Of a stretch of DNA of 44,515 bases, positions 10,772 to 38,869 are shown piece by piece (position 1 is the stretch's first letter; each line of letters starts with the position of its first letter). Below the pieces are notes generated by a model. It searched no databases, was not told the origin of the DNA, and saw nothing but the letters and a program-made list of their open reading frames with translations. The position numbers were made by a program, and so were the translations under genes. The DNA is taken from contig BROI01000012.1 of the NCBI GenBank assembly GCA_027923505.1, positions 930,001 through 974,515 of the forward strand, written 5' to 3'. This DNA comes from Mayamaea pseudoterrestris (lineage: Eukaryota).

Positions 10772-10854
10772 TAGATGAGAGATATAATTGCAGCAGTACA
10801 TATATCTAATACGAGTTTAGGCGCAAATTTCGTTTGCATTCGCCGAGGCATTTG

Positions 10855-11949: not shown

Positions 11950-12254
11950 GGTGACTAGTTGGTTGGTTTGTTCTTTTGCGAGAAATGAGATTGATGGACG
12001 ATTGGTTGGTGGAGGCGCGCGTCGTGGCGATGTCGCACCACGAACTGCTTGTCCGTCCACCTGTTGCGATGAAGGCGCTTAGCTACATCGGTTAGCTAAT
12101 ATGAGTAGCTGTATAGAAGCGTTCGAAATGTGATCTTATAGTTAATAAATATTATATTTCCTGCTTAGTTCTCATTTGGTCTGTTGATACTTCTTTAATG
12201 TATTATATTGAATTCTACTTCCACCTTACCATTCACCCAGCCCTTTCTGCCGCC

Positions 12255-19649: not shown

Positions 19650-20843
19650 TTAATCAATGTTACCCAGTGCAACAGCCTCCAGAGCTTCATCTTTCCGTCT
19701 GCCCACCGCCAGCTGAAGCTTCGTCGCTAAATTACTCACATTCCGTCCCAGATCAAAAGATTCGTACTCTGGCAAAGTTCTATCAAAAAGGCAAACCAGC
19801 AATTCCTCCATCGCAGTGCACTGTCTCAGAATTTGACATTCCAGCTCTTGCCGCTTGATTGGCGGATACATGGCTGCTCCCAAATCCGTCATGCCCTCAC
19901 CGACAGCTTGAGCGCAGTTGAACAACCGCAATATCCATTGCAATCGAGCCTCGTCTACATTCGAGAGTTCGTTGCCGTTACCTGTGGCATCCTCTGTCAA
20001 ACTCTTACCAACGTCGTCGCACGCTTGCATTGCTACATTGATGCAGCCGCGGGAGCATTTAACTAGAGCCAAAGCAGAAGTTGCGATAGGGGTTTCCTGC
20101 AGAGTGTATTGGTCAGTTCCACCTCCAAGAAACTGTTCCCATGATGGTTCCTCGCCTTCGTCAATCTCATCTGCTTCGCCATCACCATTCTCGTGCTCGT
20201 TACCCTCGTCCAAGCTCGGTCCAGCATCGATCATTTCCTGGAACTCTTGCATTGTTTCATTGCATTCTTTGATGTATATGGAGAATTCGCGCCGCATGGC
20301 TAATTGATTCGAGATTGGCAAGGACGAAGCTTGGCCATTTTGCATGTTCAAAATTGTTTGACAAGCTTCCCATACCGCTCCTGTTCGTTGGGCCGCCAAT
20401 TGTTCATTCTCCGTGAATGCCGCTGCATCTCCAGTAAAGCATTGAACGAGTTGAATCGTTGATTGCAGTACCGCTCGCGTGGCTCGCTTGATGGCATGCC
20501 GCAACGACTTGGTGCAGCCCGTCGAATCCTGGTGTACCACCAGTGCTCCAGTACATATCCATTGACATCCTGGCAGCAACGTATCGCGGGCCATTTCAGT
20601 AGCTTGAGAAACATCAATTTTACCCATTAAGGCAAACTTGGTGCTGCCAGCGTGAATGCTTGATGCTGCCTGTTGGAGCAGGTCGTATGCATTTTGAAGC
20701 GACGACGGAACGACTCGATAGTGGGAAAGCTTGGGAGCAGATTCCTTGTCGGGAAGAGACTTGAGTGTCTCTTCGAGACGTTGCAGTGTCTGAACAACCT
20801 CGTCTAGAGAGAGCGCTGCTGTTGGAGCGCCAGTCGACGCCAT
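19650..20843 (-). CDS. GCIP/CCNDBP1-like (Grap2 and cyclin-D-interacting) helical protein
   Basis: STKFAL, TGAVWEAC, E.QEM followed by an acidic stretch, and DLGAAMYPP are characteristic of the GCIP family. ATG at 20843. Confidence 0.7.
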   Translation of the reverse strand: MASTGAPTAALSLDEVVQTLQRLEETLKSLPDKESAPKLSHYRVVPSSLQNAYDLLQQAASSIHAGSTKFALMGKIDVSQATEMARDTLLPGCQWICTGALVVHQDSTGCTKSLRHAIKRATRAVLQSTIQLVQCFTGDAAAFTENEQLAAQRTGAVWEACQTILNMQNGQASSLPISNQLAMRREFSIYIKECNETMQEFQEMIDAGPSLDEGNEHENGDGEADEIDEGEEPSWEQFLGGGTDQYTLQETPIATSALALVKCSRGCINVAMQACDDVGKSLTEDATGNGNELSNVDEARLQWILRLFNCAQAVGEGMTDLGAAMYPPIKRQELECQILRQCTAMEELLVCLFDRTLPEYESFDLGRNVSNLATKLQLAVGRRKDEALEAVALGNID

Positions 20844-20925
20844 GGTTGCGACGGAACGAGATGAATGAAAGCACGACGCGATCTTTCGTGGTTCTCGCGG
20901 AGTCACGAATCACGAGTCCGTGACA

Positions 20926-21135
20926 GTGACGTAGTTTTCACTGGCACTCGTTTCGTATTATTGCCTTATGACGTAGTTTTCACTGGCACTCGTTTCATAT
21001 TACAGCCTTGTGACGTAGTTTTCACTGGCACTCGTTTCGTATTATAGCCTTGTGACGTAGTTTTCACTGGCACTCGTTTCGTATAATAGCCTCGTGACGC
21101 AGTTTTCACTGGCACTCGTTTCGTAGTAGTGCCCC
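20926..21135. repeat. Minisatellite, 5 x 42 bp, between divergent genes
   Basis: Units start at 20926, 20968, 21010, 21052 and 21094. Consensus GTGACGTAGTTTTCACTGGCACTCGTTTCGTATTATAGCCTT. Confidence 0.97.
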
Positions 21136-21404
21136 GTTGCAGATCGTCGCCAACGGCACCATGGCACCATGGCGAAAGACGCTCAACTATCAGGCATTAT
21201 CTTGGCGCTTGCACTAGCTTTATTTTCACGCTCGGTCTTGGACATGTGCTGGAACAAGGTGAGTTTAAAATGATTTTGATTAAGGTGAAGCCGGCTTTGA
21301 TGTGTGTCGCCGGTGAAATGATGTCGAATGGAACTTCTCCGATCTTCGGTGTAAGCTACCAAGCATCATGTCTCAAGAGATTCTTTTCATTCAAGGTCAT
21401 ATGC

Positions 21405-22596
21405 ATGCTGCTATCGGTAGCAGTAGTGACTGCGCTGTCAGCAAGTCGCCGAGAATTTAGCAGGTTCTTTCGAGCGACGAGAAAGGAGCAACTGCAACCA
21501 CAGCAATCTGCACCCACGACGACAGATCCAAAGGATAGCGCCAGCACCAGTGATCGCCATCGGACTACTTTGACATCGAGACATTCTCGCCGCTCCTTTC
21601 TAATTCGAGCGTCGACTGCAACAATACTCATTGCAACATCATCCATCATTTCGCAACCTTCCGTCTACGCTGCTGCTTCATCAACGAGCATTCCCTTGCC
21701 TCGTCGCCGCGAACAAACACTCAACTTTCCCTTTTACAAATTCCAGTTTGAAACAGTCGCAGACGTTCCAAAGTCCTACTTTGTCGAGCAGCGGTCCGTG
21801 TACGCGCTCGTGGAGCGCGTCATTGACGGCGACACCATTCGCGTACGACATGTTCCATTCTTTGGCTTGACTGGTCGCAAGCCGTCACCACTCACGACGC
21901 GAGGGATTGCTGATCAAACCATGTCGATTCGTATATATGGAGTGGATTGTCCAGAGATTGCCAAGAGTGGCAAGGCGGGACAGCCGTTTGCGGAAGAAGC
22001 CAAGGAATTTACGAGCAATTTGCTGCTGCATCAAATGGTCAAGATTACGTTCTTGCGACGAGACCAGTATGGCAGAGCTGTAAGCGCAGTGGAGACTGTT
22101 TCGCCATTTTGGAAGTTTGGTCTGGGCAAGAAGGATTTGAGCATGGAGCTGGCTCGAGAAGGGTTGGCGGAACTGTACACTGGTGGCGGAGCCGAGTATT
22201 TTGTAAGTGGTACACCGATGTATAGTTACGATGATCAGGGTTGCGAAACTTAGCCAAAGATAACGCAGTCTTGACCTCACATGAATACTGCAATATTTTC
22301 GTCTGCAGGACAAGCGAATTGTTTTGGAAAAGAAGATTGCCAAAGCGCAAGCGAAGAAGACAGGCATTTGGTCGCAAGGCAAGAAACGAACAAGCGCCGC
22401 CGACTTTAAAAGGAATCAGGATGCTGAGCCAGTGCCCTTGGCTTCTGCCAAGAATAAAAAGACAATCAACGACAAGCGCAACAACGTGTTGCACGTCTCC
22501 AATGCTCACAACCAACGGGCGACACCGGCTGTCGCCGATAAGCGTTCGTCGAAACTAATGGACGCTGCCGTTACTGGCTTGGAGTTTGTCAGCTAA
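21405..22596 (+). CDS. Staphylococcal nuclease (SNase/thermonuclease)-like protein with N-terminal targeting sequence; intron 22203-22308
   Basis: Intact RVIDGDT, IRIYGVDCPE and DQYGR motifs. The 106-bp GTAAGT...TGCAG intron joins GAEYF to DKRIVLEKKIAKAQAKKTGIW. The start is uncertain: a possible upstream exon 21169-21258 (AAG|GTGAGT) splices in frame to 21396. Confidence 0.88.
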
Positions 22597-22694: not shown

Positions 22695-23702
22695 TTATCT
22701 TAACTTGTCGTCATGTACTTTGTAGAATCTAGGATCAGTCGCATCCAAATTATTGTCTGCGGCCTTTGTTTGCGTAACAGAGTCGTACATCTGGTTTGGC
22801 ACTTGACTCAGAGTCGCTGCCATGGCGCTCATATTGGGTAAGCTTGACGAAAATGCACTACTCGCTGTCATTGCCGTGGGTAGCAACAAACTCGCCAACC
22901 CAGACGCAAACGCTGACGCGACCGCCGATGTCACATACAGAGTGTCCGTCGATGCCAGAGGACCGAGTGTATTCTGCAGTGTTGCGCCAGCTTGGTTCCA
23001 TTCTTGGATGCGTTGCTTTAAAAACGTCCACGTATCAGTGTAGTCGATGGATGTGTCTGTCAGCATGTGCAGCTCGGTTGCCATGTAGATACCTCCCAGA
23101 GCGAGCTTGGCAAATTCATTGCCGCTTATAACTTGTTGCGTCGTGGCATCTTTGCTGTAAGCATATTGGTAAATCAATTCAACGAGTCGTTTCAGTTGCT
23201 GCTGCGTGTGCATGACATTCTCGGGCGACGCGCCCAGCGCCATGGCCTGATGCCAGGTTTGCGACTCCATAAACTCGCGCTGGTAGCCAAGTCGCAGCTG
23301 AATGGCACGTGTCATTCGATCCGATGATGTTTCTGACGGATCAGTGACTTGTCCTTGCAAGTCATGTTCGAGCCGGCGATGGAACGTATCCATGGCATGA
23401 CAAACCAAGTCTCTTGGCGTCGCAAGGCCAGCCATGGAAAAAGAAAGGTTTGCTCGTTGTTGTCGTTGCTCCATGATAGCCTGTATGATCGCCTCCTGTG
23501 TCCATCCATGCTGATGCACGTGATGAAGCGAGCGTTCCAATAGCTGCTGTTTCATTGCGGCCACAGATGGCGGTTTTGGCGTCGGCGATGGTCCCTCGGC
23601 GCTAGTTGACGATGAAGCCAGCCGGTTAGTGACATTTTTCGCCCTGCAATCATTAAATCTTCGCACGATGACAGCCCTGTGAATAGTATTTCTAATGGAC
23701 AT
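22695..23702 (-). CDS. COQ9: Ubiquinone biosynthesis protein COQ9-like, probably mitochondrial
   Basis: LLERSLHHVHQHGWTQEAI and LGGIYMATELHMLTDTSIDYTDTWTFLKQRI. Arg/Ser-rich N-terminus from ATG 23702; upstream in-frame ATGs also exist. Confidence 0.85.
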   Translation of the reverse strand: MSIRNTIHRAVIVRRFNDCRAKNVTNRLASSSTSAEGPSPTPKPPSVAAMKQQLLERSLHHVHQHGWTQEAIIQAIMEQRQQRANLSFSMAGLATPRDLVCHAMDTFHRRLEHDLQGQVTDPSETSSDRMTRAIQLRLGYQREFMESQTWHQAMALGASPENVMHTQQQLKRLVELIYQYAYSKDATTQQVISGNEFAKLALGGIYMATELHMLTDTSIDYTDTWTFLKQRIQEWNQAGATLQNTLGPLASTDTLYVTSAVASAFASGLASLLLPTAMTASSAFSSSLPNMSAMAATLSQVPNQMYDSVTQTKAADNNLDATDPRFYKVHDDKLR

Positions 23703-24435
23703 GCTGGGAGATGGCGAAGGGCGAAGGAACTGTGAGGCGGTCATCAGTTGTTGTATCCCTAGTATCAGGTGCATGAAAGAGCGAAAACACCAATAGAGCA
23801 AACGTTTGTAAACATGCATTGCAATCATCGCTGGCGATGCTGGCGACAAACAATCGGACTATCATTGTTTGGTAGTCGCTCTCTCGCTTCACCAGATTCT
23901 CAGCTCGGCGCAGAACGTGCATTTGCCAACGTACTTGTAATTCGCGCCAACAAAAAGAAAAAATATGCAAACAAAAGACTTTGCTCTGTCACTGTCTTTG
24001 CTAGAGATCGATTCTTTTATTTGCAGCCAGAAAAGCGGATCCGAAGGATAATACAGTCGTTGTATTGCACGCAACAAACAATGGTGAGAAAAGAAAAGCA
24101 TCCGTCGCGAAACGAAAGAGACGCACCGGTATTAGTAGTCAAATCACATTTCAGTCGCGCTTGCGAAAACCTTTTCTTCGCAGAGAAGCTTGTAGTGAAA
24201 TACTATATCCCATTATTGTGGTAGGATCTATCCGAACATGCTTCACGACATTAATTGAGGCTCTGCCATTGCGACATGGATGACTTGCTTTTCGCGTGCG
24301 TCTGCGCAATGACCGTTGACCTCTGCGACATCTGCTACTTTGCACGAAGCATTAAGTCGTTTGCAAGTGTGATGAAGTCAGTTACTGTACCTTGAATCCG
24401 TAAAGCTACAATTGTACAATGGTACATAGTGTTTG

Positions 24436-24452
24436 CGCGCGCGAAGCGCGCG
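24436..24452. other. GC-rich mini-hairpin CGCGCGC-GAA-GCGCGCG at the left edge of the repeat domain
   Basis: Perfect 7-bp stem with a GAA loop, read directly from the sequence. Confidence 0.8.
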
Positions 24453-24759
24453 AATTCCACTGCTTTCTTTCAAAATCATTGATCCTACCACCTCCCCGCT
24501 CCGCGAATGTGTTTCCCATCCAAAGAGTTAAGTACAATCAATAAAGAATCAGTTTACAAGCCCCAACTTTGCAAGCCCTGCATTTGGATTAGCAGGGATT
24601 CAGATGAAATGGCAAGTCTCCAGTCTGCAGGCTGAGAATTGCAAATCCACAATCTTTACAGTCACTGACAGCCAAGAGCCATTGTTTAATAGACAGTGCT
24701 AAACGTGATTTCTATTAGAAACTAACACAGTATCCATTGTACCAAGATAATACCATTTG

Positions 24760-24880
24760 CATGTCACAGCATCTGCAGACTTAGACTGGTGACAAGTTAT
24801 CACCAATCACATTGCAGTCTACTGAGACACCAACCAGGCATACCATCTTGTAAGGCAGACTGGATAATGATTTTGAATTA
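24760..24880. repeat. Satellite family C, left remnant (partial ~168-bp monomer)
   Basis: AGACTGGTGACAAGTTATCACCAATCACATTGCAGTCTACTGAGACACCAACCAGGCATA at 24783 is nearly identical to the copy at 37829. Confidence 0.9.
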
Positions 24881-27800
24881 TTGACAAAGTTAAAGGTTAA
24901 GATGTTCCAAATTGGAAGCCAGTCAACCAGTGGTTATGCAAAAATATAGCAAGCAGGGTCCTCCAAGTGGTTCGACCAGGTCAAAGTTTCAGATGGGATT
25001 ATTATAGTGATGCAACCTGGCCAGCAAGAATCTGAACCTGCTACTGCAATCCGCAGAAGGTGCTTGACAAGGTCCAACGCTTAAAATATTGAAAACAGCA
25101 GCTTTTCTGGCAGTGGCTGTGGTGTGACTGAGACTGAAACAAGTTGGGTATTCCATTTGCCTAACACAGCAAAGTTTCAGTTGGTAATTATGTAATGATC
25201 CAACCTTGCTAGCATGATTCTGAGCATGCCATGGCAATCAGGATAAGATGTGTGACAAAGTAAAAGGTTGCAATGTTCCAAATTGGAAGCCAGTCAGCCA
25301 GTGGTTATGCACAAATATAGCAAGCAGGGTCATCCAAGTGGTTCCACCAGGTCAAAGTTTCAGATGGGATTTGTATAGTGATGCAACCTGGCCAGCAAGA
25401 ATCTGAACCTGCTACTGCAATCCGCAGAAGGTGCTTGACAAGGTCCAAGGCTTGGTATATTGAAAACAGCAGCTATTCTGGCAGTGGCTGGGGTGTGACT
25501 GAGACTGAAACAAGTTGGGTGTTCCATGTGCCAAACACAGCAAAGTTTCAGTTGGTAATTATGTAATGATCCAACCTTGCTAGCATGATTCTGAGCATGC
25601 CATGGCAATCAGGATAAGATGTTTGACAAAGTCAAAGGTTGCAATGTTCCAAATTGGAAGCCAGTCAGCCAGTGGTTATGCACAAATATAGCAAGCAGGG
25701 TCATCCAAGTGGTTCCACCAGGTCAAAGTTTCAGATGGGATTTGTATAGTGATGCAACCTGGCCAGCAAGAATCTGAACCTGCTACTGCAATCCGCAGAA
25801 GGTGCTTGACAAGGTCCAAGGCTTGGAATATTGAAAACAGCAGCTATTCTGGCAGTGGCTGTGGTGTGACTGAGACTGAAACAAGTAGGGTGTTCCATGT
25901 GCCAAACACAGCAAAGTTGCAGTTGGCATTTACGTGATGATCCAACCTTGCTAGCATGATCCTGAGCATGCCATGGCAATCAGGATAAGATGTTTGACAA
26001 GTCAAAGGTTGAGATGTTCCAATTTGGAAGCTAGTCAGCCAGTGGTTATGCGTGAATATAGCAAGTAGGTTCCTCCAAGTGGTTCCACCAGGTCAAAATT
26101 TCAGATGGGATTTGTATAGTGATGCAACCGGGCCAGCAAGAATCTGAACCTGCTACTGCAATTTTCAGAAGGTGCTTGACAAGGTCCAAGGCTTGGAACG
26201 TTGAAAACAGCAGCAATTCTGGCAGTGGCTGTGGTGTGACTGAGACTGAAGCAAGTTGGGTGTTCCATGTGCCAAACACAGCAAAGTTTCAGTTGGGATT
26301 TATGTGATGATCCAACCTTGCTAAAATCATTCTGAGCATGCCATGGCAATCAGGAAAATAAGATGTTTGAAAAAGTAAAAGGTTGCAATGTTCCAATTTG
26401 GAAGCCAGTCAGCCAGTGGTTATGCGTGAATAAAGCAAGTAGGTTCCTCCAAGTGGTTCCACCAGGTCAAAGTTTCAGATGGGATTTGTATAGTGATGCA
26501 ACCTGGCCAGCAAGAATCTGAACCTGCTACTGCAATCCGCAAAAGGTGCTTGACAAGGTCCAAGGCTTGGAATATTGAAAATGGCAGCTGTTCTGGCAGT
26601 GGCTGTTGTGTGACTGAGACTGAAACAAGTTGGGTGTTCCATGTGCCAAACGCAGCAAAGTTTCAGTTGGGATTTATGTGATGATCCGACCTTGCTAACA
26701 AGATTCTGAGCATGCCATGGCAATCAGGATAAGATGTTTGACAAAGTCAAAGGTTGAGATGTTCCAATATGGAAGCCAGTCAGCCAGTGGTTATGCACGA
26801 ATATAGCAAGCAGGGTCCTCCAAGTGGTTCCACCAGGTCAAAGTTTCAGATGGGATTTGTATAGTGATGCAACCTGGCCACCAAGAGTCTGAACCTGCTA
26901 CTGCAATCCGCAGAAGGTGCTTGACAAGGTCAAAGGCTTGGAACATTGAAAACAGCAGCTTTTCTGGCAGTGGCTGTGATGTGACTGAGACTCAAACAAG
27001 TAGGGTGTTCCATGTGCCAAACACAGCAAAGTTTCAGTTGGGATTTATGTAATGATCCAACCTTGCTAGCATGATTCTGAGCATGCCATGGCAATCAGGA
27101 TAAGATGTTTGACAAAGTCAAAGGTTGAGATGTTCCAATTTGGAAGCTAGTCAGCCAGTGGTTATGCGTGAATATAGCAAATAGGTTCCTCCAAGTAGTT
27201 TCACCACATCAATGTTTCAGATGGTATTTGTATAGTGATGCAACCTGGCCACCAAGAGTCTGAACCTGCTACTGCAATCCGCAGAAGGTGCTTGACAAGG
27301 TCAAAGGCTTGGAACATTGAAAACAGCAGCTTTTCTGGCAGTGGCTGTGGTGTGACTGAGACTGAAACAAGTTAGGTGTTCCATTTGCCTAACACAGCAA
27401 AGTTTCAGTTGGGATTTATGGAATGATCCAACCTTGCTAGCATGATTCTGAGCATGCCATGGCAATCAGGATAAGATGTTTGAAAAAGTCAAAGGTTGCA
27501 ATGTTCCAAATTGGAAGCCAGTCAGCCAGTGGTTATGCAAGAATATAGCAAGCAGGGTCCTCCAAGTAATTCCACCAGATCAAAGTTTCAGATGGGATTT
27601 GTATAGTGATGCAGCCTGGCCAGCAAGAATCTGAACCTGCTACTGCAATCCGCAGAAGGTGCTTGACAAGGTCCAAGGCTTGGAACTTTGAAAACATCAG
27701 CTATTCAGGCAGTGGCTGGGGTGTGACTGAGACTGAAACAAGTTGGGTGTTCCATGTGCCAAACAGCAAAGTTGCAGTTGGGATTTATGTGATGATCCAA

Positions 27801-28958
27801 CCTTGCTAGCATGATTCTGAGCATGCCATGGCAATCAGGATAGGATGTTTGACAAAGTCAAAGGTTGAGATGTTCCAATATGGAAGCCCGTCAGCCAGTG
27901 GTTTTGCGTGAAAATAGCAAGTAGGGTCCTCCAAGTTATTTCACCACCTCAAAGATTCAGATGGGATTTGTATAGTGATGCCACCTGGCCAGCAAGAATC
28001 TGAACCTGCTACTGCAATTGGCAGAAGATGCTTGACAAGATCAAAGGCTTGGAACTTCGAAAACAGCAGCTATTCTGGCAGTGGCTGTGGTGTGACTGAG
28101 ACTGAAACAAGTTGGGTGTTCCATGTGCCAAACACAGCAAAGTTGCAGTTGGGATTTATGTAATGATCCGACCTTGCTAGCATGATTCTGAGCATGCCAT
28201 GGCAATCAGGAGAAGATATGGAAGCCAGTCAGCCAGTGGTTATGTGTGAATAAAGCAAGTAGGTTCCTCCAAGTGGTTCCACCAGGTCAAAGTTTCAGAT
28301 GGGATTTGTATAGTGATGCAACCTGGCCAGCAAGAATCTGAACCTGCTACTGCAATCCGCAGAAGGTGCTTGACAAGGGCAAAGGCTTGGAACCTTAAAA
28401 ACAGCAGCTTTTCTGTTAGTGGCTGTGGTGTGACTGAGACTGAAACAAGGTGGGTGTTCCATGTGCCAAACACAACAAAGTTTCAGTTGGTAATAATGTA
28501 ATGATGCAACCTTGCTAGCATGATTCTGAGCATGCCATGGCAATCAGAATAAGATGTTTGACAAAGTCAAAGGTTGAGATGTTCCAATATGAAAGCCAGT
28601 CAGCCAGTGGTTATGCGTGAATAAAGCAAGTAGGTTCCTCCAAGTGGTTTTACCAGGTCAAAGTTTCAGATTTGTATAGTGATGCAACCTGGCCAGCAAG
28701 AATCTGAACCTGCTACTGCAATCCACAGAAGGTGCTTGACAAGGTCCAAGGCTTGGAACTTTGAAAACAGAAGCAATTCTGGCAGTGGCTGTGGTGTGAC
28801 TGAGACTGAAACAAGTAGGGTGTTCCATGAGCCAAACACCGCAAAGTTTTTGTTGGGATTTATGTGATGATCCAACCATGCTAGCATGATTCTGAGCATG
28901 CCATGGCAATCAGGATAAGATGTTTGACAAAGTCAAAGGTTGCAATGTTCCAATTTGG
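24881..28958. repeat. Satellite family A, block 1: about 11 tandem copies of a ~371-bp unit
   Basis: The TCAGATGG anchor recurs at 24989, 25360, 25731, 26101, 26475, 26846, 27217, 27588, 27957 and 28295, with a variant at ~28666. Confidence 0.97.
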
Positions 28959-28976
28959 GGCCATGGCAATCAGGAT

Positions 28977-31900
28977 AGGTGCGACTGACCAACTTATGGT
29001 CCATCATTGACAACAAACATGATTTGAAAGAAATTGGAGGGCTCAGTGGGCAATGCTGTGCGCAGTCTCAGGGCGTGGTGATGGCTTCCACACCCAAATA
29101 GACAAGTCTATGAGTCCCTTTCATCATTCAAGTCCATATTGATTGTATTATGGGGTCTGCAGACCATTTTGGAAGTCTCACTTGCCACTTGACGTGCACC
29201 GCTAGCAGATCCGACAAGTTGTTGGATCTGCCCAGTCTCACCATGGCATACGTGGTGATGGATGCTGAGGTGCAACTGACCAACTTATGGCCCATCATTG
29301 ACAACAAACATGATTTGAAAGAAATTGGAGGGCTCAGCAGGCAATGCTGATGATCCCTGCAGCCAAAATGGGAGCAGGGCTGGCACATTCAACCATTGGT
29401 TGAACATGCGGAGTCTCAGGGCATGGCGATGGCTTCCACACCCAAATGGACAAGTCTATGAGTCCCTTGTATTGTTCAAGTTCATAATGGTTGTATTATG
29501 GGGTCTGCAGGCCATTTTGGGAGTCTCACTTGCCACATGAGGTGCACCGCTAGCAGATCCAACAAGTTGTTGGATCTGCTCTGTCTCACCGTGGCATACA
29601 TGGTGATGGATGCTGAGGTGCAACCAACCAACTTATGGCCCATCATTGACAACAAACATGATTTGAAATAAATTGGAGGGCTTAACTGGCAATGCTGATG
29701 ATCCCTGCAGCCAAAATGGGAGCAGGGCTGGCACATTCAACCATTGGTTGAACATGCGGAGTCTCAGGGCATGGCGATGGCTTCCACACCCAAATGGACA
29801 AGTCTATGAGTCCCTTGTATTGTTCAAGTTCATATTGGTTGTATTATGGGGTCTGCAGGCCATTTTGGGAGTCTCACTTGCCACATGAGGTGCACCGCTA
29901 GCAGATCCAACAAGTTGTTGGATCTGCTCTGTCTCACCGTGGCATACATGGTGATGGATGCTGAGGTGCAACTGACCAACTTATGGCCCATCATTGACAA
30001 CAAACATGATTTGAAATAAATTGGAGGGCTTAACGGGCAATGCTGATGATCCCTGCAGACAAAATGGGAGCAGGGCTGTGTTGATATGGTGATTCAGTCG
30101 ACGGTCAACTGAAGGGCTCGGTGGTTACTACTTGCAAGTAACTAGAAAACAAAGAAGGAATGCTTTGTTTGGTAACTGTGAGTGTTTATTGTTACTGCTA
30201 AAATGTACTGCCTTTGCAGGCCGAGCATCGCCGAGGTGCAGGCTTGCTTGGGCCCTGTTAAGTGTGATAGACAGTGAACTTGCCATCTTTTGGGTAATTA
30301 GGGTGCTTTGACCTTTGTAGCCATTATTAACTGGTGATAGAACAAATAGTTAGAGAGTAGGTCAGTTGGATGCTTCGCCATCCCCTTGCCAATGGCGAGG
30401 CCTGCCTCGCCATTGTCATCCTGTGGCGAGGCTGGTTTGAGGTGACCGAACCGAATCCCGCCTGATCCGTCGATGTTGCATGGACATCCGCCTATGTCGC
30501 ATAGACATCCAACAGGCTGGCACATTCAACCATTGGTTGAATGTGCAGAGTCTCAGGGCATAGTGATGGCTTCCACGCCCAAATGGACAAGTCTATGAGT
30601 CCCATTCATTCTTCAACTCCATATTGATTGTATTATGGGGCCTGCAGACCATTTTGGAAGTCTCACTTGCCACTTGAGGTGCACCGCTAGCAGATCCAAC
30701 ATGTTGTTGGATCTGCTCAGTCTCACTGGGGAGTACATGGTGATGGATGCTGAGGTGCAACTGACCAACTTATGGCCCATCATTGAAAACAAACATGATT
30801 TGAAATAAATTGGAGGGCTCAGCGGGCAATGCTGATGATCCCTGCAGCCAAAAAGGGAGCAGGGCTGGCACGTTCAACCATTGGTTGAATGTGCGCAGCC
30901 TCAGGGCAAAGTGATGGCTTCAACTCCCAAATGGACAAGTCTATGAGTCCCAATTATTGCTCAAGTCCTAATTGGTTGTATTATGGGGGCCTGCAGGCCA
31001 TTTTGGAAGTCTCATTTGCCACTTGAGGTGCACCGCTAGCAGATCCAACAAGTTGTTGGATCTGATCAGTTTCACCGTGGCATCTATGGTGATGAATGCT
31101 GAAATGCAGCTGACCAACTTATGGCCCATCATTGACAACACACATGATTTGAAAGAAATTGGAGGGCTCAGCTGGCAATGCTGATGATCCCTGCAGCCAA
31201 AAAGGGAGCATTGGTTGAATGTGCGCAGTCTCAGGGCATGGTGATGGCTTCCACACCCAAATGGAAAGGTATATGAGTCCCATTCATTGTTCAAGTCCAT
31301 ATTGATTGTATTATGGGGTCTGTAGGCCATTTTGGAAGTCTCAGTTGCCATTTGAGGTTCACCGCTAGCAGATCCAACAAGTTCTTGGATCTGCTCTGTC
31401 TCACCGTGGCATACATGGTGATGGATGCTGAGGTGCAACTGACCAAATTTTGGCCCAGCATTGACAACAAACGTGATTTGAAAGAAATGGGAGGGCTCAG
31501 CGGGCAATGGTGATGATCCCTGCAGCCAAAATGGTAGCATGGCTGGCACATTCAACAAATGGTTGAATGTGCGGAGTCTCAGGGCATAGTGATGGCTTCC
31601 ATGCCCAAATGGACAAGTCTATGAGTCCCAATTATTGCTCAAGTCCATATCGATTGTATTATGAGGTCTGCAGGCCATTTTGGAAGTCTCACTTGCCACT
31701 TGAGGTGCACCACTAGCAGATCCAACAAGTTGTTGGATCTGCTCAATCTCACTGGGGAGTACTTGGTGATGGATGCTGAGGTGCAACTGACCAACTTATG
31801 GCCCATCATTGACAACAAACATGATTTGAAAAGAATAGGAGGGCTCAGTGGGCAATGCTGATGATTCCTGCAGCCAAAAAGGAAGCAGGGCTGGCACATT

Positions 31901-32716
31901 CAACCATTGGTTGAATGTGCGGAGTCTCAAGGCATGGTGATGGCTTCCACACCCAAATGAACAAGTCTATGAGTCCCATTCATTGTTCAAGTCCATATTG
32001 ATTGTATTATGGGGTCTGTAGGCCATTTTGGAAGTCTCAGTTGCCATTTGAGGTTCACCGCTAGCAGATCCAACAAGTTCTTGGATCTGCTCTGTTTCAC
32101 CGTGGCATACATGGTGATGGATGCTGAGGTGCAACTGACCAAATTTTGGCCCAGCATTGACAACAAATATGATTTGAAAGAAATGGGAGGGCTCAGCGGG
32201 CAATGGTGATGATCCCTGCAGCCAAAAAGGGTAGCAGGGCTGGCACATTCAACCAATGGTTGAATGTGCGGAGTCGCAGTGCATAGTGATGGCTTCCACG
32301 CCCAAATGAACAAGTCTATGAGTCCCATTCATTGATCAAGTCCATATTGGTTGTATTATGGGGTCTGCAGGCTATTTTGGAAGTCTCACTTGCCACTTGA
32401 GGTGCACCACTAGAAGATCCAACAAGTTGTTGGATCTGCTCTGTCTCACCGTGGCGTACATGGCAATGAATGCTGAGGTGCAACTGACCAACTTATGGCC
32501 CATCATGGTCAACACACATAAATTGAAAAGGATCAGAGGGCTCATCGGGCATTGCTGATGATCCCTGCAGCCAAAATGGGAGCAGTGCTGGCACATTCAA
32601 CCATTTGTTGAATGTGCACAGTCTCAGGGCATGGTGATGGCTTCCACACCTAAATGGAGAAGTCTATGAGTCCCATTCATTGTTCAAGTCCATATTGATT
32701 GTATCATGGGGTCTGC
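28977..32716. repeat. Satellite family B: about 9.5 tandem copies of a ~348-bp unit, interrupted by a solo LTR
   Basis: The GTGCAACTGACCAA-type anchor recurs at about 28978, 29270, 29618, 29966, 30754, 31104, 31433, 31781, 32129 and 32478. Confidence 0.97.
30079..30514. mobile_element. Solo LTR of an LTR retrotransposon (probably Ty1/copia), 436 bp
   Basis: Starts TGTTG and ends CAACA. Flanked by the 5-bp direct repeat GGCTG (30074-30078, 30515-30519). Uninterrupted sister units read GGGAGCAGGGCTGGCACATTC, which shows the empty site. Confidence 0.85.
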
Positions 32717-32721
32717 TTGAT

Positions 32722-35700
32722 ATAAAGCAAGTAGGTTCCTCCAAGTGGTTCCACCACATCAATGTTCCAGATGGGATTTGTATAGTGATACAACCTGGCC
32801 ACCAAGATTCTGAACCTCCTACTGCAATCCGCAGAAGGTGCTTGCCAAGGTCAAAGGCTTGGAACATTGAAAACAGCAGCTATTCTGGCAGTGGCTGTGG
32901 TGTGACTGAGACTGAAACAAGTTGGGTGTTCCATGTGCCAAACACAGCAAAGTTTCAGTTGGGATTTATGTGATGATCCAACCTTGCTAGCATGATTCTG
33001 AGCATGCCATGGCAATCAGGATAAGATGTTTGACAAAGTCAAAGGTTGCGATGTTCCAATTTGGAAGCCAGTCAGTCAGTGGTTATGCGTGAATATAGCA
33101 AGTAGATTCCTCCAAGTGGTTCCACCAGGTCAAAATTTCAGATGGGATTTGTATAGTGATGCAACCGGGCCAGCAAGAATCTGAACCTGCTACTGCAATC
33201 CGCAGAAGGTGCTTGACAAGGGCAAAGGCTTGGAACCTTAAAAACAGCAGCTATTCTGGCAGTGGCTGTGGTGTGACTGAGACTGAAACAAGTAGGGTGT
33301 TCCATGTGCCAAACACAGCAAAGTTGCAGTTGGGATTTATGTAATGATCCAACCTTGCTAGCATGATTCTGAGCATGCCATGGCAATCAGGATAAGATGT
33401 TTGACAAAGTCAAAGGTTGAGATGTTCTAATATGGAAGCCAGTCAGCCAATGGTTATGCACGAATATAGCAAGCAGGGTTCTCCAAGTGGTTCCACCTCG
33501 TCAATGTTTCAGATGGGATCTGCATAGTGATGCAACCTGGCCACCAAGAGTCTGAACCTGCTACTGCAATCCGCAGAAGGTGCTTGACAAGGTCCAAGGC
33601 TTGGTATATTGAAAACAGCAGCAATTCTGGCAGTGGCTGTGGTGTGACTGAGACTGAAACAAGTTGGGTGTTCCATGTGCCAAACACAGCAAAGTTGCAG
33701 TTGGGATTTATGTAATGATCCGACCTTGCTAGCATGATTCTGAGCATGCCATGGCAATCAGGAGAAGATATGGAAGCCAGTCAGCCAGTGGTTATGCGTG
33801 AATATAGCAAGTAGGTTCCTCCAAGTGGTTCCACCAGGTCAAAATTTCAGATGGGATTTGTATAGTGATGCAACCGGGCCAGCAAGAATCTGAACCTGCT
33901 ACTGCAATTTTCAGAAGGTGCTTGACAAGGTCCAAGGCTTGGAACGTTGAAAACAGCAGCTATTCTGGCAGTGGCTGTGGTGTGACTGAGACTGAAACAA
34001 GTAGCGTGTTCCATGTGCCAAACAGCAAGTTGCAGTTGGGATTTATGTGATGATCCAACCTTGCTAGCATGATTCTGAGCATGCCATGGCAATCAGGATA
34101 AGATGTTTGACAAAGTCAAAGGTTGAGATGTTCTAATATGGAAGCCAGTCAGCCAATGGTTATGCACGAATATAGCAAGCAGGGTCCTCCAAGTGGTTCC
34201 ACCTCGTCAATGTTTCAGATGGGATCTGCATAGTGATGCAACCTGGCCACCAAGAGTCTGAACCTGCTACTGCAATCCGCAGAAGGTGCTTGACAAGGTC
34301 CAAGGCTTGGTATATTGAAAACAGCAGCAATTCTGGCAGTGGCTGTGGTGTGACTGAGACTGAAACAAGTTGGGTGTTCCATGTGCCAAACACAGCAAAG
34401 TTGCAGTTGGGATTTATGTAATGATCCAACCATGCTAGCTTGATTCTGAGCATGCCATGGCAATCAGGAGAAGATATGGAAGCCAGTCAGCCAGTGGTTA
34501 TGCATGAATATAGCAAGTAGGTTCCTCCAAGTGGTTCCACCACATCAATGTTTCAGATGGGATTTGTATAGTGATGCAACCTGGCCACCAAGATTCTGAA
34601 CCTGCTACTGCAGAAGGTGCTTGACAAGGTCCAAGGCTTGGAATATTGAAAACAGCAGCTATTCTGGCAGTGGCTGTGGTGTGACTGAGACTGAAACAAG
34701 TAGGGTGTTCCATGTGCCAAACACAGCAAAGTTGCAGTTGGCATTTACGTGATGATCCAACCTTGCTAGCATGATCCTGAGCATGCCATGGCAATCAGGA
34801 TAAGATGTTTGACAAGTCAAAGGTTGAGATGTTCCAATTTGGAAGCTAGTCAGCCAGTGGTTATGCGTGAATATAGCAAGTAGGTTCCTCCAAGTGGTTC
34901 CACCTAGACAATGTTACAGATGGGATTTGTATAGTGATGCAACCTGGCCAACAAGAATCTGAACCTGCTACTGCAATCCACAGAAGGTGCTTCACAAGGT
35001 CCAAGGCTTGGAACTTTGAAAACAGCAGCAATTCTGGCAGTGGCTGTGGTGTGACTGAGACTGAAGCAAGTTGGGTGTTCCATGTGCCAAACACAGCAAA
35101 GTTTCAGTTGGGATTTATGGAATGATCCAACCTTGCTAGCATGATTCTGAGCATGCCATGGCAATCAGGATAAGATGTTTGACAAAGTAAAAGGTTGCAA
35201 TGTTCCAATTTGGAAGCCAGTCAGCCAGTGGTTATGCGTGAATAAAGCAAGTAGGTTCCTCCAAGTGGTTCCACCAGGTCAAAGTTTCAGATGGGATTTG
35301 TATAGTGATGCAACCTGGCCAGCAAGAATCTGAACCTGCTACTGCAATCCGCAGAAGGTGCTTGACAAGGGCAAAGGCTTGGAACCTTAAAAACAGCAGC
35401 TATTCTGGCAGTGGCTGTGGTGGGACTGAGACTGAAACAAGTAGGGTGTTCCATGTGCCAAACACAGCAAAGTTGCAGTTGGGATTTATGTGATGATCCA
35501 ACCTTGCTAGCATGATTCTGAGCATGCCATGGCAATCAGGATAAGATGTTTGACAAGTCAAAGATTGAGATGTTCCAATTTGGAAGCCAGTCAGCCAGTG
35601 GTTATGCACAAATATAGCAAGCAGGTTCCTCCAAGTGGTTCCACCAGGTCAATGTTTCAGATTGGATCTTGTATAGTGATGCAACCTGGCCACCAAGAGT

Positions 35701-37606
35701 CTGAACCTGCTAATGTAATCCGCAGAAGGTGCTTCACAAGGTCCAAGGCTTGAAACTTTGAAAACAGCAGCTATTCTGGCAGTGACTGTGATGTGACTGA
35801 GACTCAAACAAGTAGGGTGTTCCATGTGCCAAACACAGAAAAGTTTCAGTTGGGATTTATGTGATGATCCAACCTTGCTAGCAAGATTTTGAGCATGCCA
35901 TGGCAATCAGGATAAGATGTTTAACAAAGTCAAAGGTTGAGATGTTCCAATTTGGAAGCCAGCCAGCCAGTGGTTATGCATGAATATAGCAAGCAGGGTC
36001 CTCCAAGTGGTTCCACCACATCAATGTTTCAGATGGGATTTGTTTAGTGATGCAACCTGGCCAGCAAGAATCTGAACCTGCTACTGCAATTTGCAGAAGG
36101 TGCTTGACAAGGTCCAAGGCTTGGAACTTTGAAAACAGCAGCTATTCTGGCAGTGGCTGGGGTGTGACTGAGACTGAAACAAGTAGGGTGTTCCATGTGC
36201 CAAACACAGCAAAGTTTCAGTTGGGATTTATGTGATGATCCAACCTTGCTAAAATCATTCTGAGCATGCCATGGCAATCAGGATAAGTTGTTTGACAAAG
36301 TCAAAGGTTGCAATGTTCCAATTTGGAAGCTAGTCAGCCAGTGGTTATGCGTGAATATAGCAAGTAGGGTCCTCCAAGTGGTTCCACCTCGTCAATGTTT
36401 CAGATTGGATCTTGTATAGTGATGCAACCTGGCCACCAAGAGTCTGAACCTGCTACCGTAATCCGCAGAAGGTGCTTGACAAGGTCCAAGGCTTGGATCT
36501 TTGAAAACAGCAGCTATTTTGGCAGTGACTGTGATGTGACTGAGACTCAAACAAGTAGGGTGTTCCATGTGCCAAACAGCAAGTTGCAGTTGGGATTTAT
36601 GTGATGATCCAACCTTGCTAGCATAATTCTGAGCATGCCATGGCAATCAGGATAAGATGTTTTACAAAGTCAAAGGTTGAGATGTTCCAATTTGGAAGCT
36701 AGTCAGCCAGTGGTTATGCGTGAATATGGCAATTAGGGTCCTCCAAGTGGTTCCACCTCGTCAAAGATTCAGATGGGATTTGCATACTGATGCAACCTGG
36801 CCACCAAGAATCTGAACCTGCTACTGCAATCCACAAATAGTGCTTGATAAGGTCCAAGACCTAGAACTTTGAAAACAGCAGCTATTCTGGCAGTGGCTGT
36901 GGTGTGACTGAGACTGAAACAAGTTGGGTGTTCCATGTGCCAAACACCGCAAAGTTTCAGTTGGGATTTATGTGATGATCCAACCTTGCTAGCATGATTC
37001 TGAGCATGCCATGGCAATCAGGATAAGATGTTTGACAAAGTCAAAGGTTGCGATGTTCCAATTTGGAAGCTAGTCAGCCAGTGATTATGTGTGAATATAG
37101 CAAGTAGATTCCTCCAAGTGGTTCCACCACATCAAAAATTCAGATGGGATTTGCATACTGATGCAACCAGGCCAGTAATATTCTGAACCTGCTACTGCAA
37201 TCCACAAAAGGTGCTTGACAAGGTCCAAGACCTAGAACTTTGAAAACAGCAGCTATTCTGGCAGTGGCTGTGGTGTGACTGAGACTGAAACAAGTTGGGT
37301 GTTCCATGTGCCAAACACAGCAAAGTTTCAGTTGGGATTTATGTGATGATCCAACCTTGCTAGCATGATTCTGAGCATGCCATGGCAATCAGGATAAGAT
37401 GTTTGACAAAGTCAAAGGTTGAGATGTTCCAATTTGGAAGCCAGTCAGTCAGTGGTTATGCGTGAATATAGCAAGTAGATTCCTCCAAGTGGTTCTACCG
37501 CATCAAAGTTTCAGATGGGATTTGTATAGTGATGCAACCTGGCCAGCAATATTCTGAACCTGCTACTGAAATCCGCAGAAGGTGCTTGACAAGGTCCAAG
37601 GCTTGG
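32722..37606. repeat. Satellite family A, block 2: about 13 tandem copies of the ~371-bp unit
   Basis: Anchors at about 32767, 33138, 33509, 33847, 34215, 34553, 34916, 35287, 35657, 36029, 36400, 36769, 37140 and 37511 (partial). Same orientation as block 1. Confidence 0.97.
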
Positions 37607-38185
37607 GTGTATACATGGCATGATATATGGGCATGTGAATGTCAAGGCACCTGCAGGTTGAGACTGGTGACAACTTGTCACTAATCACATTGCAGTCTAC
37701 TGAAACACCAGTTAGTCATAACATCTTGTAGCGCAACCTCAATAATGATGTTGGCATTATTCTTCTGGAATTTGGGTGTCTATATGGCTTGATGTATGAG
37801 CATTGCATGTCACAACATCTGCTGGCTGAGACTGGTGACAAGTTGTCACCAATCACATTGCAGTCTACTGAGACACCAACCAGGCATAACATATTGTAGT
37901 GCACTTTGAATAAGGATGTTGGCACCGTTCTGGTGTTTATTGGTCATGGGGATGGCTTTGAGAATGGGCTGCTGAAAGTTGCCGTTGTCATTTGCTGGGA
38001 CTGGTGTGAAGTTTCACCCATGGCATTGCTGCATTGAATGCACCGGACAATCATGACATCTTGTAGAGAAGCCTAAATTAGAATGTTGGCACGTTCTTGT
38101 TTAAGTCAGGCATACTGTATGCTGACTCCTAGAAATCATGGCATCAGCTGTCTGAGACTGCTGGCGAGAAGCTCACACCAATACT
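37603..38185. repeat. Satellite family C, right part: 3-4 increasingly degenerate ~157-169 bp monomers
   Basis: (A/G)GACTG anchor at 37661, 37829, 37998 and 38155, with ACATCTTGTAG...ATGTTGGCA repeated in between. Confidence 0.8.
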
Positions 38186-38230
38186 ATTCTGCTTGCATAA
38201 CTACAACATAATAGTTACTTCCCTTTAATT

Positions 38231-38869
38231 TTATGTATGCAGGTGCTGCATCTTTTGCAGATGTTTGCAATGAGTTTTGTGTTCCGCCCAATCTTTTGCT
38301 TGGCAGGCTACAGAGCAGTATGACGCTACGCGGCACTTGGTGCATTCCAGCATGCTTGTGACAGTCAAAGTTACTTTGCAGCCTTCTGTAACGCACATCT
38401 CCACTTCTTGTACAGAACGCGTCAAATCCATTAATAGATAGAAACAATCACAAGGGGAATGTTCCAAGTAGTACAAGAAAATGTTTCGGTGACTCGTCAG
38501 TCTTGACATTTTGATTTGCCCTGGCTGTTGTTTCTCGTACCCATATTTTGATTCAATGAGAGAGATGAGGAAGGTCATGGCATACAGACGATCACAAACT
38601 AAATCAAGTTCGTCCGCTTTCCCGTACGACGCCTTGATCCATTTCAGTCCAGTGGCAATAATCTTGCGGCGCATAGTGTCACCAAAAATTGACCCGTACT
38701 TTGTTACGACGTCCCCAAAAGTAGCATCACTTCCATGAAGGTATACATAGCGAACAACTTCGTTCATCGCCTCTTTGTAGGGATCAGTTCCATCCGAGAG
38801 CGCTGACTCGTAGCCATGGTGGCAGAAGGAGCTCCACGCCGGGAATGGCAACTTTGTTGCTGACTCCAT
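38231..38869 (-). CDS. MYND-type zinc finger protein
   Basis: C-terminal CVTEGC...CTKCRVASYCSVACQAKDWAEHKTHC, preceded by a PCDC motif as seen in diatom MYND proteins. Confidence 0.85.
   Translation of the reverse strand: MESATKLPFPAWSSFCHHGYESALSDGTDPYKEAMNEVVRYVYLHGSDATFGDVVTKYGSIFGDTMRRKIIATGLKWIKASYGKADELDLVCDRLYAMTFLISLIESKYGYEKQQPGQIKMSRLTSHRNIFLYYLEHSPCDCFYLLMDLTRSVQEVEMCVTEGCKVTLTVTSMLECTKCRVASYCSVACQAKDWAEHKTHCKHLQKMQHLHT

Follow-up and report, generated by a model that had tools for sequence, protein, structure and literature searches.

The region from 24,760 to 38,185 of the window (the whole stretch of 44,515 nucleotides of Mayamaea pseudoterrestris DNA that we analysed) is a real nest of repeats. 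A satellite with a 168-bp unit (C) is interrupted by a satellite with a 371-bp unit (A), which is interrupted by a satellite with a 348-bp unit (B), which in turn is interrupted by a solo LTR. The best reading of this nest, to which we give a probability of roughly 60%, is that satellite DNA was inserted, step by step, into breaks in older repeats by end joining and that one retrotransposon also integrated. The layers total 13.4 kb and are arranged as follows:

24743..24882, forward strand: C-left, the 168-bp C monomer that A interrupts, C1 phases 5-147
24881..28958, forward strand: A-left, 11 full 371-bp units and the 31-bp start of the interrupted unit
28960..28977, forward strand: templated filler, 18 bp between A and B, a copy of A phase 344-361
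28977..30078, forward strand: B-left, starting at B phase 232
30079..30514, no strand assigned: solo LTR, 436 bp, TGTTG...CAACA, target-site duplication GGCTG
30515..32716, forward strand: B-right, 6 full 348-bp units and a 124-bp end piece
32717..37606, forward strand: A-right, resuming at A phase 53-60, 13 units of more than 300 bp, ending at phase 200
37603..38101, forward strand: C-right, the rest of the interrupted monomer (37603-37613) followed by C1, C2 and C3
24743-24882, C1 37615-37782, C2 37784-37938 and C3 37952-38101: the clear C monomers, plus the 11-bp piece 37603-37613

TRF delimited the 371-bp array to 24881-28954 and 32714-37606 and the 348-bp array to 29059-30078 together with 30515-32716; it also called a 168-bp repeat over 37615-37958. 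The layout is mirror-symmetric in BLAST phase mapping (C-A-B-A-C), and every host resumes on the same strand and in the same unit register, as seen by TRF, BLAST phase mapping and junction alignment. In the BLAST phase maps, the last A-left position is unit phase 31 (28958), and A-right picks up at phase 60 (32722). The B insert runs from phase 232 at its first position (28977) to phase 124 at its last (32716). For C, the left part breaks off at C1 phase 145-147 (24880-24882) and the array continues from phase 157-158 (37603). The host arrays are thus continuous across their inserts, with phase jumps of 31-38 to 53-60 in A and 145-147 to 157-158 in C. If the flanks were unrelated, the same strand and a forward phase gap this small (at most 28/371 for A and 16/168 for C) would be expected with probabilities of 0.038 and 0.048, or about 0.002 for both. 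The nesting order and the in-register resumption indicate insertion events, each of an inner element into a host monomer. Both had been claimed in the original prediction, which named flanking C and A pieces out of register as an outcome that would speak against it. TRF, BLAST phases and junction alignment bear the claim out, and alignment placed the flanking pieces in register. Phase maps and junction alignments also confirmed that A lies inside one C monomer, B inside one A unit and the LTR inside one B unit, and every sequence string that had been quoted is present where it had been placed.

Arrays of units that are 88-99% identical are hard to assemble, and repeat-induced chimeric joins could mimic nesting. 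Among the 32 contig pieces listed, with 17,404 further pieces beyond the listing, one of the six junctions is bridged: two contigs of public sequencing run X5 (24833-24972 and 24833-24941; depth 4.7 and 6.0 vs about 6.3 on unique flanks) cross the C/A junction, and X5 may itself be the source sample of the assembly. None of the 32 crosses the other five junctions. However, random misjoins would not restore host strand and phase twice (about 0.002, as above), nor would they place exact 5-bp duplicates on both sides of a TG..CA element or leave behind a templated filler of 18 bp. The window contains 0 N, and locus-specific A units (32739-32881 and 33402-33564) are found at unique depth with 0 differences in runs X5 and X6. 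This makes an assembly artefact extremely improbable.

The innermost element is the solo LTR of an LTR retrotransposon. It begins with TGTTG at 30079 and ends with CAACA at 30514, which gives it 5-bp inverted termini with TG..CA ends. It is flanked by the 5-bp target duplication GGCTG at 30074-30078 and 30515-30519, a length within the 4-6 bp of LTR target-site duplications, and GGCTG occurs once at that phase in the B consensus. A BLAST search of the window revealed no second LTR copy. At 30149, contig depth in run X1 was 638 vs 103-116 on unique flanks, which suggests a multi-copy LTR family.

At the satellite junctions of this locus, we found no target duplication and no terminal inverted repeat. 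Junction alignment revealed overlaps of TT (2 bp) at C/A, TTGG (4 bp) at A/C, TGC at B/A and 1 bp between filler and B. The filler at the left A/B junction (28960-28977) is identical in 18/18 positions to A phase 344-361, with its source about 61 bp upstream. The B insertion cost A 15-28 bp, varying with the assignment of the junction letters; of the step of about 30 bp that had been predicted in A, the resumption further along the same unit stands, but the loss is smaller. For C, the loss at the A insertion is 0-10 bp. The predicted figure of about 10 bp holds against monomer C1 (10 bp) but is the upper end of this range, and 11 bp are absent there even from the intact C2. The junctions thus combine microhomology, small deletions and filler without target-site duplication, although overlaps of 1-4 bp are partly expected by chance and, being short, are each weak evidence alone. 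Taken with the small target losses and the templated filler, these overlaps point to end joining (classical or polymerase-theta type) and not to transposition. In circle reintegration, the first and last truncated units add up to one unit (PMC7403614). The end units do not sum in this way for B (117 + 124 = 241/348) or for A (about 4 + 200 of 371). On the 185-bp half-unit register of A, its ends overlap by about 21 bp.

A, B and C are unrelated, non-coding satellites. Local alignments of the three pairs on both strands, judged against 200 shuffles, showed no mutual similarity (z ≤ 1.4 in 6/6 comparisons). Both consensus units have stops in all six frames, the only ORF of more than 113 aa had 0 Pfam matches, and 0 Rfam families were found within the window. 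All three satellites appear to be multi-copy genome-wide, and C, probably in thousands of copies, is by far the most abundant. Summed over the short contigs of public sequencing runs, a measure that does not give copy numbers, the depth of the C bin 37488-37958 was 468,235, 69,668 and 79,466 in X1, X5 and X6, respectively, compared with about 103-116, 6.3 and 25-28 on unique flanks. On the same measure, the eight B bins (29010-32777) in X1 ranged from 2,599 to 83,910, with seven at 30,091 or higher and the lowest containing the LTR, and the A bins were mostly at 3,010-13,607 (range 51-31,010). Pieces of A, B and C are also present in run X2, which comes from a different organism. One X5 contig joins B (31356) to A (27114) at other phases with a depth of 15.4, which may reflect a further A/B junction at some other site.

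A-left and A-right once formed a single array. This follows from their mean unit identities (92.3% among left units, 92.6% among right units and 92.2% for left-right pairs), from nearest neighbours that lie in the same block for 13/24 units vs 11.6 expected (p = 0.37), from a unit tree with 7 left/right label changes vs 8.1 with shuffled labels, and from the absence of a decay of identity with distance among the A units. The A unit is an old 185-bp dimer, the two halves of which align with z = 26.8, and A-right holds a recent 706-bp duplication (33405-34110 vs 34111-34812) whose first units are 99% identical. The B units have a mean identity of 89.6-90.0%, which is 94.4% among the 3 left units, and those of B-right are mutually 88-97% identical. 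An internal deletion of 57 bp in the first full B-left unit takes it from phase 313 directly to phase 23, and the units at 29385-29732 and 29733-30078 are 99% identical. C forms a small cluster here, with only about five clear monomers. C2 and C3 are 82% and 76% identical to C1, and C-left matches C1 at 112/140 positions (score 156 vs a shuffled maximum of 42). A C core 21-mer lies at 24805-24825, and further C pieces at 24580-24682 (a decayed monomer) and 38109-38215 are marginal when compared with shuffles.

The end-joining reading would involve four steps. A small cluster of C, the most abundant satellite of the genome, would already have been present. A stretch of the unrelated satellite A would then have been joined into a break inside one C monomer, and a stretch of a third satellite, B, into a break inside one A monomer, where repair may have copied 18 bp of nearby A as filler. 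Finally, a B monomer would have received an LTR retrotransposon, with duplication of 5 bp of target, and later LTR-LTR recombination would have reduced the element to a solo LTR. Donor DNA may have come from other arrays of these families in the genome, perhaps by way of extrachromosomal circles or template switching. Growth in situ from small seeds would look the same here as the insertion of ready-made arrays. We propose that the nest exists because, in a compact genome, large insertions survive only inside existing junk. The complex is the sole large gene-free gap of the window: neighbouring ORFs of at least 200 aa are separated by 84-1,090 bp outside the complex vs 14.4 kb at the complex, and the flanking genes carry Pfam families. 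We infer the repair pathway, the form of the donors, the role of selection and the occurrence of all steps at this locus. The locus would then document how repeat DNA came to fill breaks in older repeats, in intergenic DNA of a pennate diatom, with no cellular function implied.

Repeated seeding into the same locus, as the original prediction inferred, is only one possibility: A may have received B at another site, and the whole composite may have come in as a single piece. In that case, a nest built elsewhere would have moved into or out of the C cluster as one C-flanked block by homologous exchange, in one recent local event, either through ectopic conversion between C monomers or through circle integration and excision. 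A 979-bp contig of run X1 (unique depth 115.6) runs through the right flank at 37916-38400 with 1 difference. It opens with 30 letters identical to C-left 24831-24860, of which 7/30 differ from C2 of the window at the same phases, and 9 other letters join both parts, exactly filling C phases 125-133. The contig thus matches the allele expected without the 13,055-bp block. The left-flank contig of X1 breaks off at 24809, shortly after entering the high-copy C core, and bin 33249-33719 reaches 0.45x unique depth in X1 but about 0.9x in both X5 and X6. In X5, the C/A junction is carried by two contigs that differ slightly, each at nearly the full unique depth, and homology-assisted spread of hybrid repeats is among the proposals in PMC7403614. 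Against this, the part of the X1 contig that resembles C-left is only 30 letters long, one below the word size of the run index (31). If the X1 contigs were built with the same 31-letter word as the index, as we presume, a 30-letter match is evidence of a shared word but not of a contig continuous with the left flank. The 9 letters in between fit neither C-left (4/9) nor C2 (5/9), and the product of a simple crossover is therefore not seen. X1 may instead carry the block with a different C2 monomer, and contig cover is patchy (0.3x for X6 in bin 32778-33248). Transfer as one block therefore appears unlikely.

The original prediction placed the oldest and most decayed layer outermost and suggested that divergence be compared within families. 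In this comparison, C does have the lowest identity (76-82% to C1), but the inner B (89.6-90.0%) is more diverged than its host A (92.2-92.6%), and the proposed order is therefore not monotonic. Monomer divergence need not date local events either, because the families appear to be multi-copy genome-wide and C is the most abundant. The likeness that had been drawn to layered expansion in primates is not supported at this locus: the mirror flanks are present, but divergence does not rise outward and the layers are unrelated. The primate model comprises related alpha-satellite layers, CENP-A-bound centromeres and an outward divergence gradient, and it allows seeding from outside; two active arrays interrupted by another satellite family are also noted by Altemose et al. 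(2021, 10.1101/2021.07.12.452052). What is shared with that description is the mirror-symmetric older flanks around a younger core. Unlike the primate alpha-satellite arrays described there, which cover hundreds of kb to Mb and carry CENP-A on their youngest layer, the complex here spans 13.4 kb and has unrelated layers, non-monotonic divergence, base-pair-exact register and repair scars.

Layered turnover of a satellite centromere or pericentromere, in which new satellites originate in or reach the kinetochore-bound core, expand and displace older layers outward, would also yield a C-A-B-A-C mirror symmetry. At 168, about 185 and about 174 bp, the units or half-units are of nucleosome size, and such lengths are linked with centromeric satellites. 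The complex occupies the only large gene-free gap of the window and has 43-48.5% GC, compared with about 48-54% elsewhere in the window. Of all 500-bp segments in the window, the one with the least GC (40.6%) is 24451-24950, on the left edge of the complex, and the two C-bearing edges are the lowest-GC kilobases (43.0% and 43.9%). C is the high-copy satellite of the genome, and the contig of the window (974,515 bp) is chromosome-sized for a small diatom. However, the layers lack sequence similarity to one another, divergence is non-monotonic (B at 90% below A at 92.3%), none of the 16 100-bp stretches of the window with at most 32% GC lies inside the complex (24500-38200), and the junctions show discrete insertions instead of gradual expansion. 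Such turnover is thus distinctly improbable. Very doubtful, too, is the more specific proposal that the complex is the candidate centromere, or the immediate flank, of a chromosome of roughly 1 Mb in a pennate diatom whose centromeres, in contrast to those of Phaeodactylum and Fistulifera, consist of nucleosome-sized satellites that would replace one another from inside by insertion, with C marking all centromeres and A and B as younger invaders. If true, neither a satellite centromere nor layered centromere turnover would have been seen in diatoms before, and the structure may be polymorphic between close relatives.

A Phaeodactylum-type centromere was also considered and rejected, as a low-GC cluster (100-bp windows with at most 32% GC) is absent from the complex, which consists of repeats. 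The centromeres of P. tricornutum, mapped by ChIP, are described as short low-GC regions without highly repeated arrays (10.1101/096016), and the putative centromeres of F. solaris as regions of 36-42% GC over 1.4-2 kb, likewise without highly repeated arrays (10.1101/2021.11.10.468027). The complex resembles the centromeres in these descriptions in being gene-free, in having GC below its surroundings and in lying on a contig of roughly 1 Mb, but differs from them in its 43-48.5% GC and in being built of satellites.

In the literature searched, we found no paper devoted to diatom satellite DNA and none describing such nesting, in agreement with the original prediction. The closest precedent for successive end-joining insertions is the Rsp-like satellite, which inserted into 1.688 clusters in X-chromosome euchromatin of Drosophila simulans and mauritiana, where microhomologies of 4-7 bp, a 36-bp host deletion (type 3) and eccDNA are described (Sproul et al. 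2020, PMC7403614). As in that account, an unrelated satellite lies in euchromatin within an older array of another satellite, with short junction microhomology (1-4 bp here), small host deletions (0-28 bp here) and, at some junctions, added or duplicated sequence; the routes proposed are end joining, template switching or eccDNA. Unlike the Drosophila case as described there, the diatom locus has two successive satellite-in-satellite levels and an LTR, with 348-371-bp units and kb-scale inserts, and lacks the circle signature. Diatom LTR retrotransposons, with their copia-like CoDi elements, are described as abundant and recombinogenic (Maumus et al. 2009, PMC2806351). The locus shares with nested transposons and solo LTRs the TG..CA ends, the short target duplication and the position of younger inside older elements, but its outer three layers are satellites.

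The window is gene-dense: neighbouring ORFs of at least 200 aa are separated by 84-1,090 bp, except for one 14.4-kb gap that is bounded by a COQ9-like ORF and a zf-MYND ORF. This gap contains three tandem-repeat families and one interspersed element. That the organism is a diatom, as originally proposed, is supported by an ornithine-cyclodeaminase-like ORF whose best named relatives, none of them close, are from pennate diatoms (54% to Phaeodactylum tricornutum; 45-49% to Fistulifera, Seminavis and Nitzschia) and by a DUF6824 ORF. The latter overlaps a second long ORF on the opposite strand (12198-13319, plus). A 42-bp minisatellite (20926-21125; 4.8 copies, 93% matches) occupies the short spacer of a divergent GCIP-like/SNase-like ORF pair.

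ORFs named in the text
12255-13652, minus strand: DUF6824 ORF, from a Pfam scan that covered the minus ORF alone of the overlapping pair
19650-20906, minus strand: GCIP-like ORF
21129-22253, plus strand: SNase-like ORF
22695-23849, minus strand: COQ9-like ORF, left border of the gap
38231-38869, minus strand: zf-MYND ORF, right border of the gap

Satellite C had been predicted to be interrupted by satellite A, A by satellite B and B by a solo LTR, each host resuming in register. Phase (position within the unit) was mapped by BLAST and alignment to the unit consensus. This confirmed the nesting with four corrections, and all strings quoted in the original prediction were found where it had placed them.

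Elements of the nested complex
24743-24882 and 37603-38101: C, 168-bp unit
24881-28958 and 32717-37606: A, 371-bp unit
28977-30078 and 30515-32716: B, 348-bp unit
30079-30514: solo LTR, 436 bp

A halts at unit phase 31 and restarts at phase 53-60 on the same strand; the left A block is readable as A up to phase 37, given a 2-letter change, and the target loss at the B insertion is 15-28 bp. C halts at phase 145-147 of C1, an intact local monomer, and restarts at phase 157-158. Measured on C1, ~10 bp of C is gone, but C2, an intact monomer, itself lacks 11 bp exactly there, so the true loss of C is 0-10 bp. Both target losses are smaller than the ~10 bp (C) and ~30 bp (A) first given. A C array is present and interrupted in register, but it comprises just ~5 clear monomers, and two more pieces are marginal against shuffled sequences. 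Unrelated flanking pieces would share their strand and show forward phase gaps this small with a chance probability of ~0.038 x 0.048 = 0.002. The LTR lies inside one B unit, as predicted, and interrupts it precisely: GGCTG is single in the B consensus and present on both flanks of the element, whose start is corrected to 30079. The logic of the nesting holds up, in that every inner element went into a monomer of its host.

To judge by their units, the left and right A blocks were once a single array. Mean A-unit identity is 92.3% within the left block, 92.6% within the right and 92.2% between them, and units further apart in the array are no less alike. The nearest neighbour lies in the same block for 13 of the 24 units (11.6 expected, p = 0.37), and the maximum-likelihood tree contains 7 left/right label changes, compared with 8.1 when labels are shuffled. 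These comparisons show no sign that A units were homogenised block by block once B had been inserted.

Satellite junctions
24880/24881: C/A junction, 2-bp overlap, TT
28958: left A/B junction, A to this position, 18 bp at 28960-28977, then B at phase 232; 1-bp overlap
32714-32716: B/A junction, 3-bp overlap, TGC
37603-37606: A/C junction, 4-bp overlap, TTGG

The 18-bp filler (28960-28977), a further correction to the prediction, is 18/18 identical to A phase 344-361, ~61 bp upstream. Small target loss, short overlaps and a locally templated filler are marks of end joining, and templated filler is typical of polymerase-theta-mediated joining. Target duplications and terminal repeats are absent from all four satellite junctions. 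A Helitron or other transposon carrying the arrays was ruled out by eye, because target loss is seen in place of these features. The interspersed element is a classical solo LTR with TGTTG...CAACA ends and GGCTG on both sides as a 5-bp target-site duplication; target duplications of LTR retrotransposons are typically 4-6 bp. Diatom LTR retrotransposons and their recombination have been described (PMC2806351).

We consider it fairly probable (roughly 0.6) that the nest arose by successive break-repair insertions and one retrotransposition into a tolerated junk locus. Satellites would have entered host monomers by end joining, and the LTR element would have entered a B monomer by integrase. Among documented cases, the nearest is on the X of the Drosophila simulans clade, where Rsp-like repeats have spread into 1.688 arrays; microhomologies, small deletions in the host, duplication of junction sequence and plentiful satellite eccDNA are described there (PMC7403614). 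The SatXplor paper, too, names microhomology together with the reintegration of eccDNA as a way for satellites to spread (PMC11663013). The circle signature described for Drosophila, in which the first and last truncated units of the insert add up to one, does not appear in the diatom (B = 241/348, and A does not fit either). We therefore think it more likely that breaks were repaired from a linear or copied donor, though circles may have been involved. Survivorship probably explains the nesting: kilobase insertions would be tolerated only within non-genic DNA that is already present, repeats are prone to breakage, and a very compact genome would restrict such insertions to pre-existing junk.

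Diatom satellite DNA is almost unstudied. The literature searched on diatoms, satellites, centromeres and tandem repeats contained no work devoted to diatom satellite DNA or to such nesting, in agreement with the suggestion that it had not been described in diatoms. In the main text of a recent diatom transposon preprint, the strings 'satellite', 'tandem repeat' and 'centromer' do not occur (10.1101/2025.10.24.684338). Solo LTRs, nested repeats and the insertion of one satellite into another are all of known kinds; the diatom nest, with its two satellite levels and exact scars, adds a new example. These base-pair-exact scars suggest that in a stramenopile, too, whole satellite stretches are inserted where other satellites have broken, as was previously inferred for Drosophila euchromatic satellites. 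The satellite families C (168 bp), A (371 bp) and B (348 bp), now defined, and the sequences of the six junctions may be used as markers to compare strains, to test for eccDNA and to address the satellite-centromere question in diatoms.

Common ancestry of A, B and C was rejected, as they show no mutual similarity on either strand (z <= 1.4). The A unit (for example 25256-25626) is an old head-to-tail dimer of ~185 bp (halves align at z = 26.8), and the A array begins and ends at near-identical half-unit phase, with an overlap of ~21 bp. A B dimer is weak at most (halves z = 3.6). A coding or RNA origin was also rejected: the two consensus units tested contain stop codons in all six frames, Pfam gave no match for the longest ORF of the complex (196 aa, in B), and Rfam found nothing in the window. 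Metagenome scans with a 21-nt C core and a 24-nt B palindrome returned 0 matches each.

The outermost layer had been predicted to be the oldest and most decayed. C monomers are indeed 76-82% identical to C1, but inner B (~90%) is more diverged than its host A (~92%), so the age gradient is not monotonic. B units are 89.6% identical among the 6 right units, 94.4% among the 3 left and 90.0% between these groups, and the first carries a 57-bp internal deletion. The two directly left of the solo LTR (29385-29732 and 29733-30078) are 99% identical, the other B units 87-97%; judged by their sequence, they represent a very recent local duplication. A recent duplication is also found in the right A block, where a 706-bp duplication includes units 33405-33769 and 34111-34475, which share 99% identity. 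A 34-bp deletion variant, in which phase 365 is joined to phase 29, occurs once in the left A block (28217/28219) and twice in the right, the latter two copies belonging to the 706-bp duplication (33405-34812).

The prediction also likened the complex to the layered expansion of primate centromeres. The mirror symmetry is shared, but two of the four defining features are missing: primate layers are related and diverge outwards, whereas the diatom layers are unrelated and their gradient is non-monotonic. In the primate study, related alpha-satellite layers show this outward gradient, with CENP-A on the youngest layer (10.1101/2021.07.12.452052). A layered (peri)centromere would fit the nucleosome-sized repeat units and the position of the complex at the GC minimum of the window; 1-kb bins at its C-bearing edges have 43.0% and 43.9% GC, and the lowest 500-bp value, 40.6%, lies at 24451-24950. 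Nevertheless, none of the 16 100-bp windows with <=32% GC lies in the complex. In the two diatoms studied, centromeres are short, low in GC and without highly repeated arrays; those of P. tricornutum were identified by ChIP (10.1101/096016), those of F. solaris are predicted (36-42% GC; 10.1101/2021.11.10.468027). As a centromere-like feature, dyad symmetry is marked in B alone (a 13-bp-stem palindrome, DNA fold z = -2.5), and neither A (z = -0.05) nor C (z = -0.3) stands out. Each B unit contains two palindromes of ~29 and ~25 nt (29552-29580 and 29385-29409), the longer of which folds as the 13-bp stem. We regard a centromeric role as unlikely; if it were real, the current view that diatom centromeres are short low-GC regions free of repeats would no longer hold.

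A search of public sequencing runs matched six runs from two studies, four of which (X1, X2, X5 and X6) were compared as contigs; X3 and X4 (run shares 0.07-0.08) were left out, and contig-less parts of the stretch were not counted as evidence. Contig depth in the unique flanks is ~103-116 in X1, ~6.3 in X5 and ~25-28 in X6. Summed contig depths, which are not copy numbers, reach 468,235 (X1), 69,668 (X5) and 79,466 (X6) in the C bin 37488-37958. In X1 they are 2,599-83,910 over the eight B bins (29010-32777), seven being at least 30,091 and the lowest containing the LTR, and mostly 3,010-13,607 in the A bins (range 51-31,010). By this measure, all three families are multi-copy genome-wide, with C far above B and B above A, so the outer layer, 'decayed' at this locus, is part of the genome's most abundant satellite. 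C-family contigs in three runs (12, 4 and 7) match from 37816, in C2, onward and have another consensus upstream; the abundant genome-wide C thus shares only part of the local monomer. X2, labelled as a different organism, contains a 401-bp A contig with 12 differences, plus B and C pieces.

Two X5 contigs (24833-24972 and 24833-24941) bridge the C/A junction at about unique depth, the sole one of the six junctions bridged among the 32 contig pieces listed, with 17,404 more beyond that listing. Contigs of X5 (32739-32881) and X6 (33402-33564) reproduce locus-specific A units at unique depth with 0 differences. Both runs may have been used to build the assembly, so their contigs support it, though not independently. 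An X5 joint of B (31356) to A (27114) at other phases (depth 15.4) weakly hints at another A/B junction elsewhere.

At full depth, the left flank of X1 carries one substitution and an 8-bp deletion (24569, 24622) relative to the window, so X1 represents another strain or species than the assembly does. It also offers a lead to another history, in which a 13,055-bp block (A-B-LTR-A and two C monomers) moved through C monomers as one piece and is missing from the X1 allele. A 979-bp X1 contig, whose depth of 115.6 is that of unique sequence, matches the right flank from 37916 onward except for 1 difference and begins with 30 letters equal to left-hand C (24831-24860), followed by 9 other letters. 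Such a joint is how a block-less allele is expected to look; the 30 letters differ from C2 at 7/30 positions of the same phases, and the 9 fill C phases 125-133 exactly. However, 30 letters is one under the 31-letter word size of the run index, with which the contigs were presumably also built, so the contig shows a shared word and not continuity with the left flank. Moreover, the 9 joining letters fit neither left-hand C (4/9) nor C2 (5/9). With so short a left side, the joint of 24860 to 37916 was downgraded as proof of an empty allele. The left-flank contig of X1 ends at 24809, within the high-copy C core. If the lead holds, the block would be polymorphic between close relatives whose flanks are ~99% identical.
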